Both the position numbers and the translations under genes were made by a program. 64,000 nt of DNA from Escherichia coli. GTDB taxonomy: Bacteria > Pseudomonadota > Gammaproteobacteria > Enterobacterales > Enterobacteriaceae. The notes under the pieces are model-generated. The model was not told where the DNA came from and ran no database searches. It saw only the letters and a program-made list of their open reading frames with translations. Positions 1,754 through 31,781 of the stretch are shown here, piece after piece (position 1 is the stretch's first letter; every line of letters begins with the position of its first letter). The stretch is taken from assembly GCF_046105845.1 (NCBI RefSeq), contig NZ_CP151004.1. One strand, written 5' to 3'.

Positions 1754-2520
1754 TGAGCAATTTATTAGGCCCCCGTGACGCCAACGGCATTCCGGTCCCG
1801 ATGACGGTGGATGAATCCATCGCCAGCATGAAGGCGTCGTTACTGAAAAAAATCAAACGTTCTGCCTACGTTTACCGCGTGGACTGCGGCGGCTGCAACG
1901 GCTGCGAAATCGAAATTTTCGCCACGCTTTCGCCGCTGTTTGATGCAGAACGCTTCGGCATTAAAGTCGTTCCTTCACCGCGTCATGCGGATATTTTACT
2001 GTTTACCGGCGCGGTCACCCGTGCAATGCGATCCCCTGCGCTGCGTGCGTGGCAGTCCGCGCCGGACCCGAAAATCTGTATCTCCTACGGTGCCTGCGGT
2101 AACAGTGGCGGGATCTTCCATGATCTCTACTGCGTGTGGGGCGGTACGGATAAAATCGTCCCGGTGGATGTTTATATCCCTGGCTGCCCGCCAACGCCTG
2201 CCGCCACGCTGTACGGCTTCGCGATGGCGCTCGGCCTGCTGGAGCAGAAAATCCACGCTCGTGGGCCGGGTGAACTGGATGAACAACCGGCGGAGATCCT
2301 GCATGGCGATATGGTGCAGGCGCTGCGTGTGAAAGTAGATCGCGAAGCACGCCGACTGGCGGGTTATCGTTACGGTCGTCAGATTGCCGATGACTTCCTG
2401 ACACAGTTAGGGCAGGGCGAAGAACAGGTTGCACGCTGGCTGGAAGCGGAAAACGATCCGCGTCTGAACGAGATTGTCAGCCATCTGAATCATGTTGTTG
2501 AAGAGGCGCGTATCCGATGA
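1753..2520 (+). CDS. hycG: Hydrogenase-3 small subunit
   Basis: 255 aa; 1-nt TGATG overlap with hycF; Cys-rich small-subunit motifs (CGGCNGC, GCPP). Confidence 0.92.
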
Positions 2521-27981: not shown

Positions 27982-28009
27982 TTGACTTATAAGTCTCAGA
28001 AAGTAATAT
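27982..28009 (+). promoter_or_regulatory. Candidate sigma-70 promoter of the serV-arg tRNA operon
   Basis: TTGACT (27982..27987), 16-nt spacer, TAATAT (28004..28009), then a GC-rich discriminator gcgccacgc. Confidence 0.5.
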
Positions 28010-28071: not shown

Positions 28072-28164
28072 GGTGAGGTGGCCGAGAGGCTGAAGGCGCT
28101 CCCCTGCTAAGGGAGTATGCGGTCAAAAGCTGCATCCGGGGTTCGAATCCCCGCCTCACCGCCA
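28072..28164 (+). tRNA. serV: tRNA-Ser (anticodon GCU)
   Basis: 93-nt cloverleaf with long variable arm, anticodon loop cuGCUaa, encoded CCA. Confidence 0.9.
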
Positions 28165-28167
28165 TTT

Positions 28168-28244
28168 GCATCCGTAGCTCAGCTGGATAGAGTACTCGGC
28201 TACGAACCGAGCGGTCGGAGGTTCGAATCCTCCCGGATGCACCA
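28168..28244 (+). tRNA. argV: tRNA-Arg (anticodon ACG), copy 1
   Basis: 77 nt gcatccgtagctcag...gatgcacca; anticodon loop cuACGaa. Confidence 0.9.
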
Positions 28245-28378
28245 TATTCTACATATTTTCAGCGATGAAGGTATGGAAGAGGTGGCGGTAATAACCGCAG
28301 GCACTAGGGAGGATAACGTTGCTTTAGCAACGGCCCGAAGGGCGAGCCGCAAGGCGAGTAATCCTCCCGGATGCACCA
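28245..28378 (+). repeat. Inter-tRNA repeat unit ending in a 19-nt copy of the tRNA-Arg 3' end
   Basis: aatcctcccggatgcacca at 28360..28378 identical to the tRNA-Arg 3' end; the unit has a paralogue at 28800..28932. Confidence 0.6.
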
Positions 28379-28442
28379 TCTCTTACTTGATACGGCTTTA
28401 GTAGCGGTATCAAAAAATCTGCAGTAAAGTAAGTTTCCCGAT

Positions 28443-28519
28443 GCATCCGTAGCTCAGCTGGATAGAGTACTCGGCTACGAACCGAGCGGTCGGAGGTTCG
28501 AATCCTCCCGGATGCACCA
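28443..28519 (+). tRNA. argY: tRNA-Arg (ACG), copy 2
   Basis: Identical 77-nt tRNA-Arg sequence. Confidence 0.88.
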
Positions 28520-28582
28520 TCTCTTACTTGATATGGCTTTAGTAGCGATATCAATATCAGCAGTAAAATAAATTTTCCCGAT

Positions 28583-28659
28583 GCATCCGTAGCTCAGCTG
28601 GATAGAGTACTCGGCTACGAACCGAGCGGTCGGAGGTTCGAATCCTCCCGGATGCACCA
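28583..28659 (+). tRNA. argZ: tRNA-Arg (ACG), copy 3
   Basis: Identical 77-nt tRNA-Arg sequence. Confidence 0.88.
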
Positions 28660-28722
28660 TCTCTTACTTGATATGGCTTTAGTAGCGATATCAATATCAG
28701 CAGTAAAATAAGTTTTCCCGAT

Positions 28723-28799
28723 GCATCCGTAGCTCAGCTGGATAGAGTACTCGGCTACGAACCGAGCGGTCGGAGGTTCGAATCCTCCCGGATGCACCA
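28723..28799 (+). tRNA. argQ: tRNA-Arg (ACG), copy 4
   Basis: Identical 77-nt tRNA-Arg sequence. Confidence 0.88.
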
Positions 28800-28932
28800 T
28801 ATTCTCCGAAATCTTCAGCAATAAAGGTATCGAAGAGGTAGCGGAATTAACCGCAGGCACCAGGGAGGATAACGTTGCGCCAGCAACGGCCCGAAGGGCG
28901 AACGCCAGTGAGTCATCCTCCCGGATGCACCA
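28800..28932 (+). repeat. Second copy of the inter-tRNA repeat unit with a tRNA-Arg 3'-end fragment
   Basis: atcctcccggatgcacca at 28915..28932; the preceding ~115 nt are paralogous to 28245..28360. Confidence 0.6.
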
Positions 28933-29079
28933 TCTTCTCCAAAAAATTTCCTTCAAAAATATCTCATTTCTAAATAACTACTTTATCCATTTCCTGAATA
29001 TTCTTCTCCTTCGCCATCAGCGACAAAATCAAGCAATTACGCTAAAGTAGCGTCATATTTTTCGACTTGCGAGAAGACC

Positions 29080-29646
29080 ATGTACGAGCGTTATGCAGGT
29101 TTAATTTTTGATATGGATGGCACCATCCTGGATACGGAGCCTACGCACCGTAAAGCGTGGCGCGAAGTATTAGGGCACTACGGTCTTCAGTACGATGTTC
29201 AGGCAATGATTGCGCTTAATGGCTCGCCCACCTGGCGTATTGCTCAGGCGATTATTGAGCTGAATCAGGCCGATCTCGACCCGCATGCGTTAGCGCGTGA
29301 AAAAACAGAAGCAGTAAGAAGTATGCTGCTGGATAGCGTCGAGCCGCTTCCTCTTGTCGAAGTGGTGAAAAGTTGGCATGGTCGTCGCCCAATGGCTGTA
29401 GGAACGGGGAGTGAAAGCGCCATCGCTGAGGCATTGCTGGCGCACCTGGGGTTACGCCATTATTTTGACGCCGTCGTCGCTGCCGATCACGTCAAACATC
29501 ATAAACCTGCGCCAGACACATTTTTGTTGTGCGCGCAGCGTATGGGCGTGCAACCGACGCAGTGTGTGGTCTTTGAAGATGCCGATTTCGGTATTCAGGC
29601 GGCCCTTGCAGCAGGCATGGACGCCGTGGATGTTCGCTTGCTGTGA
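29080..29646 (+). CDS. yqaB: HAD-family sugar phosphatase (fructose-1-phosphatase)
   Basis: HAD motif I LIFDMDGTILDTE; 188 aa. Confidence 0.88.
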   Translation: MYERYAGLIFDMDGTILDTEPTHRKAWREVLGHYGLQYDVQAMIALNGSPTWRIAQAIIELNQADLDPHALAREKTEAVRSMLLDSVEPLPLVEVVKSWHGRRPMAVGTGSESAIAEALLAHLGLRHYFDAVVAADHVKHHKPAPDTFLLCAQRMGVQPTQCVVFEDADFGIQAALAAGMDAVDVRLL

Positions 29647-31708: not shown

Positions 31709-31781
31709 AAAAAGGCCACTCGTGAGTGGCCAAAATTTCATCTCTGAATTCAGGGATGATGATAACAAATGCGCGTCTTTC
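31709..31781 (-). ncRNA. micA: MicA (SraD) small regulatory RNA
   Basis: Minus strand reads gaaagacgcgcatttgttatcatcatccctgaattcagagatgaaattttggccactcacgagtggccttttt, i.e. the MicA sequence with its terminator hairpin. Confidence 0.9.

Follow-up and report, generated by a model that had tools for sequence, protein, structure and literature searches.

Two paralogous units of the Escherichia coli serV-argVYZQ operon as members of the tRNA-linked repeat family

The serV-argVYZQ operon of Escherichia coli lies within the 64,000-nt stretch of DNA analyzed here (the window) and holds the two units that are the subject of this report. A first-pass annotation of the letters alone had noted a tRNA-Arg array at this place, and our tRNA search of the region using ARAGORN and Rfam found serV plus four tRNA-Arg(ACG) genes (Table 1). 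The four tRNA-Arg genes are 77 nt each and mutually identical. They are separated by gaps of 198 nt after the first copy and 63 nt after copies 2 and 3, and a further 280 nt lie between copy 4 and yqaB. The array consists of tandem 140-nt repeats of a tRNA gene and its spacer. The stop codon of csrA lies upstream of the operon and the ATG of yqaB downstream, at 29081; csrA is found directly upstream of this tRNA operon in Escherichia, Salmonella, and Klebsiella. Over this region, identity to the closest complete E. coli genome is 99.2%.

A single promoter-like site was found between 27700 and 29150. It is upstream of serV and is presumed to be the operon promoter, and a terminator-like hairpin followed by a T run presumably ends the transcription unit in the interval between the second unit and yqaB. 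Both units lie inside this transcription unit, between the promoter-like and the terminator-like site.

Table 1. Features of the serV-argVYZQ operon and of the two units, in window coordinates.
Feature	Coordinates	Strand	Basis or remark
Promoter-like site TTGACT-16-TAATAT	27982-28009	+	upstream of serV; presumed operon promoter
tRNA-Ser(GCU), serV	28072-28164	+	ARAGORN, Rfam; name from K-12 annotation
tRNA-Arg(ACG) copy 1 (argV position)	28168-28244	+	ARAGORN, Rfam
Unit 1	28245-28378	+	134 nt; assigned as TLR, raV orthologue
Unit 1, 5' hairpin AUUUUCA-GCGA-UGAAGGU	28255-28272	+	predicted; GNRA loop
Unit 1, hairpin 2 GCGG-UAAUAA-CCGC	28285-28298	+	predicted fold
Unit 1, closing helix 5' strand GCACUAGGGAGGAU	28301-28314	+	complement of tRNA 3'-end copy
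Unit 1, family core CGUUGC-UUUA-GCAACG then GCCC-GAA-GGGC	28317-28343	+	core pattern, predicted fold
Unit 1, hairpin C GCC-GCAA-GGC	28346-28355	+	predicted fold
Unit 1, tRNA-Arg 3'-end copy	28360-28378	+	19/19 identical
Ordinary inter-tRNA spacer	28379-28442	+	64 nt; after unit 1
tRNA-Arg(ACG) copy 2	28443-28519	+	ARAGORN, Rfam
tRNA-Arg(ACG) copy 3	28583-28659	+	ARAGORN, Rfam
tRNA-Arg(ACG) copy 4	28723-28799	+	ARAGORN, Rfam
Unit 2	28800-28932	+	133 nt; assigned as TLR, raQ orthologue; in operon 3' trailer
Unit 2, family core CGUUGC-GCCA-GCAACG then GCCC-GAA-GGGC	28873-28899	+	core pattern, predicted fold
Unit 2, tRNA-Arg 3'-end copy	28914-28932	+	18/19 identical
Terminator-like hairpin (29039-29053) + T run	29039-29063	+	unit 2/yqaB interval; presumed transcription unit end

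The first-pass annotation had described the spacer after Arg copy 1 and the sequence after Arg copy 4 as paralogous units, each with a short hairpin and a copy of the tRNA-Arg 3' end. Two paralogous units are indeed present; they can be aligned end to end and are about 90% identical (mean column identity of 92%, and 88% across a 91-nt ungapped block). The first base of each unit directly adjoins the CCA of a tRNA-Arg gene. Unit 1 terminates in aatcctcccggatgcacca, which equals the tRNA-Arg 3' end at 19 of 19 nt (20 nt when the following T is included), and unit 2 terminates in c-atcctcccggatgcacca, which equals it at 18 of 19 nt. Only 134 nt of the spacer after copy 1 belong to the unit; the remaining 64 nt are ordinary inter-tRNA spacer. 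Likewise, the hairpins cgttgc-ttta-gcaacg (28317-28332, unit 1) and cgttgc-gcca-gcaacg (28873-28888, unit 2) are real, but five hairpins plus a long-range helix are predicted for each unit rather than one short hairpin. The core pattern that bears these hairpins matched twice in the window, against 0.00 matches expected from 100 shuffles.

Judged by their sequence, both units are tRNA-linked repeats (TLR, alias RtT) and orthologues of raV and raQ of E. coli K-12. The TLR family goes back to an observation by Egan and Landy in 1978, was catalogued by Rudd in 1999, and comprises 22 copies at ten loci in K-12 (PMC8144298). Its members are recognized by their location in tRNA or rRNA operons and by a 3' terminus whose last 18-19 nt repeat the 3' end of the gene upstream (PMC8144298), and the names raV, raZ, and raQ for the copies in the arg operon are taken from a strain table in the supplement of that study (Stenum et al., 2021; PMC8144298). 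Both window units are in a tRNA operon, directly behind a stable-RNA gene, and carry the 3' copy of the upstream tRNA. In K-12 MG1655, units that match those of the window follow argV, argZ, and argQ, and the RefSeq annotation of that genome has no feature at these positions. Alignment of the K-12 locus gave 3 differences in 134 nt between unit 1 and raV (98% identity) and 7 differences in 133 nt between unit 2 and raQ (95% identity), which supports the orthology. The K-12 and window units are thus alike in operon, in position (after the first and the last Arg gene), and in their 18-19-nt 3' copy; the window differs in having no middle copy, and its site after Arg copy 3, where K-12 has raZ, is empty.

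A common core pattern, CGNNGC-N3-5-GCNNCG-RCCCGRAGGG, was found in the two window units, the three arg-operon units of K-12, four units of the tyrT-tyrV operon (one of which is annotated as rttR), and one unit of rrnB, where it sits between the two terminators. The repeat family is therefore one that is already known, and the observation is a rediscovery of something on record since 1978 that by itself changes little. The first-pass annotation did not identify the units as members of this named family.

We also compared the units with the Rfam model for RtT (RF00391), which has a gathering score of 45 bits. Unit 1 scored 29.2 and 34.2 bits and unit 2 scored 20.3 bits, all below this cut-off, and an Rfam scan of the window at the gathering threshold gave no RtT match. 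A local search aligned unit 1 to model positions 46-130 (E = 1.8e-5), and the significant similarity covers the 3' half of the model with the core hairpin, CCCGAAGGG, and the tRNA 3' copy. Because the repeats linked to tRNA-Tyr and tRNA-Lys and those of Marinobacterium score above the cut-off (53-101 bits) and the Arg units below it, the Arg-linked units are a divergent subtype of the known family. This subtype is missed by the Rfam RtT model and unannotated in RefSeq, so that genome scans will keep flagging it.

The likeness to RtT RNA (rttR, in tyrT-tyrV) extends to the order of the elements, as both types share CGUUGC(C)-loop-(G)GCAACG, RCCCGAAGGG, a variable hairpin, GAGUAAUCC, and the tRNA 3' end, one after the other. 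In both, the 3' copy is predicted to pair with an upstream strand. RtT is co-transcribed with its tRNA, and the position of the Arg units inside the transcription unit likens them to it. The Arg units differ in lacking the GGTTCGA...GAGCG...GCGAGA segment and in their 5' half, which consists of the GNRA hairpin plus a second hairpin. The core hairpins are likewise shared with RrA, RrB, and RrF, the 5S-linked members between T1 and T2 of rrnA, rrnB, and rrnD, and these too copy the 3' end of the upstream stable RNA.

Folding predictions gave minimum free energies of -56.3 kcal/mol for unit 1 (z = -5.65) and -49.0 kcal/mol for unit 2 (z = -3.97), both far lower than in shuffled controls. The predicted order is a 5' hairpin with a GNRA loop, a small second hairpin, and a long-range helix that encloses three hairpins, namely CGUUGC-N4-GCAACG, GCCC-GAA-GGGC, and a variable third. 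In the long-range helix, GCAC(C/U)AGGGAGGAU would pair with AUCCUCCCGGAUGC in the copied tRNA 3' end, and ACCA would remain unpaired. The strand GCACUAGGGAGGAU contains an 8-nt exact complement of the tRNA 3' copy, a match that was equaled in 27 of 2000 shuffles. The 3' copy of unit 1 corresponds to tRNA nt 58-76, that is, the last three nucleotides of the T-loop, the 3' strand of the T-stem, the 3' strand of the acceptor, and ACCA. In the modeled structure, this copy and the internal strand would close a 13-bp stem that is similar to a tRNA minihelix. The internal strand itself resembles the 5' strand of the acceptor (GCAUCCG) joined to that of the T-stem (GGAGG), and we infer that the 3' domain resembles an acceptor/T-arm minihelix with the three-hairpin module in the place of the T-loop. 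In Arg- and Tyr-linked units, 8-10 nt of the 3' copy have an exact complement in the body; the closing-helix complement was sought in a 5S-linked unit and in the L106 unit and was absent from both.

The predicted fold is supported by covariation in its outer parts. Among 15 Arg-type units from E. coli, E. albertii, Enterobacter cloacae, and Pantoea stewartii, 96.4% of the cells were paired, compared with 89.3% in shuffles, and 11 compensatory pairs were counted. None of 500 shuffles reached this number, and sliding the partners gave 3-5. The covariation is located in the 5' hairpin, where compensatory changes occur in Enterobacter, Pantoea, and a remnant of the repeat in O157:H7; in hairpin 2, whose counterpart differs in sequence in E. 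cloacae, E. albertii, and Salmonella; and in the third hairpin, hairpin C of unit 1, in which Enterobacter and Pantoea have the two stem strands exchanged (GGC/GCC). Within the Arg type, neither the closing helix nor the two core hairpins vary, and this support is therefore confined to the peripheral hairpins. Across the family, the first core hairpin does show compensatory forms (CGUUGC/GCAACG, CGUCGC/GCGACG, and CGCCGC/GCGGCG), and in Klebsiella the GCCC/GGGC stem is kept with loops of UUA or AAA.

A protein-coding role for the units, by analogy to tpr of the tyrT repeats, was also considered and rejected. The sole long ORF (28117-28401) crosses a tRNA gene. Where unit 1 has an ATG, unit 2 and K-12 raZ and raQ all have ATC, and the units are therefore non-coding.

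We compared 13 E. coli alleles of the array (the window, K-12, and 11 others that were fetched) and found between three and five Arg genes and between zero and four TLRs. With A for a tRNA-Arg gene and T for a TLR, K-12 reads A-T-A-A-T-A-T, the window and strain 2012C-4221 (L014) read A-T-A-A-A-T, and strain 11 (L007) reads A-T-A-T-A-T. RM9245 (L008) has four tRNA-Arg genes with one TLR behind each, ATCC 25922 (L009) has five tRNA-Arg genes followed by a single TLR, and O18:H1 CFSAN067215 (L012) has five tRNA-Arg genes and zero TLRs. The O157:H7 strain (L011) and PNUSAE019785 (L010) read A-A-A-r-A-T; here r stands for a spacer of 102 nt in which the 5' hairpin is all that is left of a TLR, and this hairpin has compensatory changes. 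In P31_YH1 (L006), the terminal unit is deleted between two GCACCA words. Unit number and position thus differ widely among strains, which rules out a spacer that is invariant across the species, the outcome that would have spoken against the first-pass proposal. The locus is highly polymorphic.

At empty sites, the tRNA is joined exactly to the sequence that otherwise follows the 3' copy of the TLR, and each unit is therefore an exact indel with the 19-nt direct repeat at its boundaries. Unit 1 is a 134-nt indel relative to the empty-site strains; the 64-nt spacer behind it is identical to the spacer directly behind Arg copy 1 in L010 and L011, where unit 1 is absent. Variants of the loop and of the third hairpin (hairpin C) are reassorted among the copies, which indicates gene conversion. 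The arrangement of the window is collinear in at most 236 of 5426 complete E. coli genomes, and the K-12 arrangement was found in about 15 of 40 evenly spaced E. coli records. The terminal unit and its downstream flank are present in 4737 of the 5426 genomes.

Arg-linked TLRs were found in the same operon of Salmonella enterica subsp. houtenae, Klebsiella pneumoniae, Enterobacter cloacae, and Pantoea stewartii, and by this comparison the association of TLRs with the Arg operon is older than these genera. The conserved TLR body is also found beside tRNA-Tyr, tRNA-Lys, tRNA-Arg(CCG), and 5S rRNA genes, each time with the local gene's own 3' end.

The explanation that we favor, at a probability of roughly 85%, is that the units are members of the TLR family that are transcribed with the operon, released by tRNA processing, and spread or lost by recombination. 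Each unit would be transcribed as a segment of the tRNA precursor and excised by the enzymes that mature the neighboring tRNAs: RNase E would cut just 3' of each CCA, 3' exonucleases would trim to the CCA, and RNase P would cut at the next tRNA. In this scheme, the 3'-end copy could have two roles. It would reproduce a 3' processing signal, and it would pair with the internal strand GCACCAGGGAGGAU to form the 13-bp stem with an ACCA tail. With this stem closed, the released RNA should have a tRNA-like end that is protected from exonucleases. Gain, loss, and movement of the units would proceed by homologous recombination or gene conversion without a dedicated integrase, with the identical 77-nt tRNA genes, the similar spacers, and the 19-nt repeats as substrates.

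The first-pass annotation had suggested that the units could be processed into stable RNA. Such processing has been shown for relatives, as the tyrT operon yields rtT RNA in this way and the rrn operons yield RrA/B/F, and the repeated 3' end has been suggested as a recognition element for RNase E (Stenum et al., 2021; PMC8144298). For the two units of the window, the same fate is inferred from these relatives, and they are most likely co-transcribed passenger RNAs that tRNA processing would set free. As potentially trans-acting by-products of tRNA-operon processing, they would be comparable to 3'ETS-leuZ and other small RNAs from tRNA spacers. There is no sequence relationship between them, and 3'ETS-leuZ, a base-pairing sponge, does not carry a copied tRNA 3' end. 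Any cellular role of the units is non-essential and may be nil, because L012 has no unit in this operon and a K-12 strain deleted for all 22 TLRs has been constructed (PMC8144298, supplement).

The tRNA 3'-end copies had been read by the first-pass annotation as classic scars of site-specific integration. On such a reading, each unit would be the attL-attR remnant of an element that integrated into the 3' end of tRNA-Arg and lost its interior. Many tyrosine-integrase att cores fall in the sublocation of tRNA genes from the T-loop to the CCA, and the direct repeat here does span T-loop position 58 to the CCA end; the precise, repeat-bounded presence/absence polymorphisms would also fit. We nevertheless regard this origin as highly improbable. 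The body of about 115 nt has no credible ORF, and no integrase is nearby in the window, in K-12, or in the fetched E. coli loci, where the neighbors are csrA and yqaB. Its occurrence beside genes for tRNA-Tyr, tRNA-Lys, tRNA-Arg(CCG), and 5S rRNA would require many integrases acting on one element end, and one operon (L008) carries up to four copies. Searches of phage and plasmid collections gave essentially only mislabelled chromosomes, and the covariation of the hairpins is what selection on an RNA fold would produce. The alternative offered alongside the scar, tRNA gene conversion, has fared better: gain and loss of the units fit homologous recombination or gene conversion more closely. A simple duplication of an ordinary inter-tRNA spacer along with the tRNA genes might be suspected from the tandem 140-nt repeats of which the array is built. 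It is refuted, to the point of being negligible, by the ordinary 62-64-nt spacer, which differs in sequence and occurs besides the unit, and by the presence of the unit core in unrelated operons and other genera.

A regulatory role was also evaluated, in which the units, as small RNAs of the RrA/B/F kind that bind CsrA and/or Hfq, would couple transcription of the tRNA operon to CsrA activity. The 5S-linked RNAs bind Hfq and CsrA in vitro (PMC8144298), each Arg unit has three GGA triplets, and the operon is directly downstream of csrA in the three genera named above. RrB, which binds both proteins in vitro, has GGA in hairpin loops and is located behind a terminator; the Arg units, unlike RrB, have no internal terminator, and the predicted folds place their GGA triplets in helices or internal loops, so that neither unit exposes GGA in a hairpin loop as in CsrB or RrB. 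In addition, InvenireSRNA assigned a probability below 0.01 to all 19 TLRs of tRNA operons, and RrA/B/F were called unique in the family (PMC8144298). Together with strains such as L012 that have no unit in the operon, this makes a sponge function quite unlikely.

A different question is where the units came from, and here a tentative answer can be given that is compatible with the favored explanation. The units may descend from a tandem tRNA copy that gained the module of about 50-60 nt in its T-loop, between nt 57 and 58, and whose 5' two-thirds then decayed. TLRs linked to tRNA-Tyr, tRNA-Lys, and Marinobacterium tRNA-Arg(CCG) have the local T-stem 5' strand and TTCGA before the module (AAGGTTCGA, GCAGGTTCGA, and GGGGTTCGA) and AAT plus the T-stem 3' strand after it. 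In the Arg type, GCACCAG-GGAGG resembles an acceptor 5' strand fused to a T-stem 5' strand, and TLRs occupy multi-copy tRNA arrays, in which loss of one copy is tolerable. Against this descent, the 5' 72 nt of the units have no significant similarity to the 5' part of tRNA-Arg or to the spacer (local alignment scores fell within the shuffled range), the complementary 5' strand is absent from 5S-linked and L106 TLRs, and where such a strand exists, selection for pairing would explain it equally well. We thus consider a decayed tRNA pseudogene possible but not probable.

What is new here is the covariation in the peripheral hairpins, the predicted 13-bp minihelix-like stem, the allele polymorphism, and the Arg-linked TLRs in other genera. 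The natural alleles, with zero to four copies at defined positions, provide a ready-made series for the study of tRNA-Arg maturation, gene copy-number dynamics, and fitness. The repeats also render the major tRNA-Arg array prone to recombination, and the sampled strains have three to five genes.

To look beyond these loci, we scanned 100,044 species genomes for the core pattern. The scan returned at least 120 loci, mostly chance matches in GC-rich genomes, and its yield is to be read as examples. If the tRNA-minihelix mimics with a genuine ACCA end proposed next were real, they could engage or titrate RNase P, RNase T/PH, or the CCA-adding enzyme. The proposal, which we hold to be doubtful, is that the module of about 50 nt (the CGYYGC hairpin, the GCCC-GAA-GGGC hairpin, and a variable third) is an autonomous element that was repeatedly embedded at the T-loop position of partial tRNA copies, and that TLRs are one branch of a wider, undescribed gammaproteobacterial family of RNA modules. 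The hairpin module was also seen free-standing, with GGA-loop hairpins at its flanks and in tandem arrays, in Salinicola, Bowmanella, Stenotrophomonas, and Pseudomonas.

The core of the tRNA-linked repeat (TLR) was also found free-standing, with no adjoining tRNA, at several of the fetched comparison loci (listed in the table below), where a CGUCGC-loop-GCGACG hairpin is followed by GCCCGAAGGG. GGA-loop hairpins lie on the flanks of these cores. In Salinicola the cores form a tandem array of at least four units of 74 nt, with 14 GGA occurrences in 421 nt, and some copies have a terminator downstream. When the free-standing cores were searched against Rfam, no family scored as high as its gathering threshold. 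Their appearance suggests either intergenic repeats of a REP-like kind or sponges of the Csr/Rsm type, related to the 5S-linked TLRs.

Features located in the comparison loci and in the window
Feature	Sequence	Position	Strand	Call
Free-standing TLR core	L107 (Salinicola tamaricis)	about 1970-2220		
Free-standing TLR core	L108	6260-6480		
Free-standing TLR core	L121 (Bowmanella)			
Free-standing TLR core	L022 and L103 (Stenotrophomonas)			
Free-standing TLR core	L093 (Pseudomonas sp.)			
MicA small RNA	Window	31710-31781	minus	Rfam RF00078, 83.9 bits
tRNA, CAT anticodon	Window	62778-62853	plus	ARAGORN, tRNA-Met

A TLR-like element 3' of tRNA-Arg(ACG) in an uncultured gammaproteobacterium (L106, 2274-2359) was matched by Rfam family RF02902 (AaHKsRNA22) at 41 bits, against a gathering score of 39.8. 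This family, an Aggregatibacter small RNA, is probably a TLR under a different name. The locus resembles rrnB in its terminator-TLR-terminator order.

Within E. coli, the third inter-Arg spacer of O157:H7 (L011) and its relatives, including PNUSAE019785 (L010), is 102 nt long and holds a TLR remnant. Only the 5' hairpin is kept (AUCAUCA-GUGA-UGAUGGU), with compensatory changes relative to CCUUCA-GCAA-UGAAGG; the core has been lost, and so has the duplicated tRNA 3' end. Separately, the arg array of an E. coli Rosetta2-DE3 assembly (L013) is interrupted within a tRNA-Arg gene at about 2270 (gaaccgagcg/taagcaccc), and a DUF6531/rhs-like pseudogene and ybbP lie beyond the break. Either the genome was rearranged here, with a breakpoint inside the array, or the junction is an artefact of assembly.

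Public collections contain chromosome-sized records labelled as plasmid or phage, among them L136 (CP125156.1) and further multi-megabase "plasmid" records, as well as AGRM01000002.1 in the phage collection. Matches to such records are no evidence that the repeat is carried by mobile elements.

Other RNA calls were made in the window. ARAGORN placed a tRNA-Arg(tcg) antisense to the first tRNA-Arg(ACG) copy (28188-28259, minus strand), which we regard as a false positive, as it was called at this copy only and had no Rfam support. The CAT-anticodon tRNA has no TLR core beside it and, judged by its map position relative to K-12, may be an ileY-type tRNA-Ile2. MicA is expected in the luxS-gshA neighbourhood.
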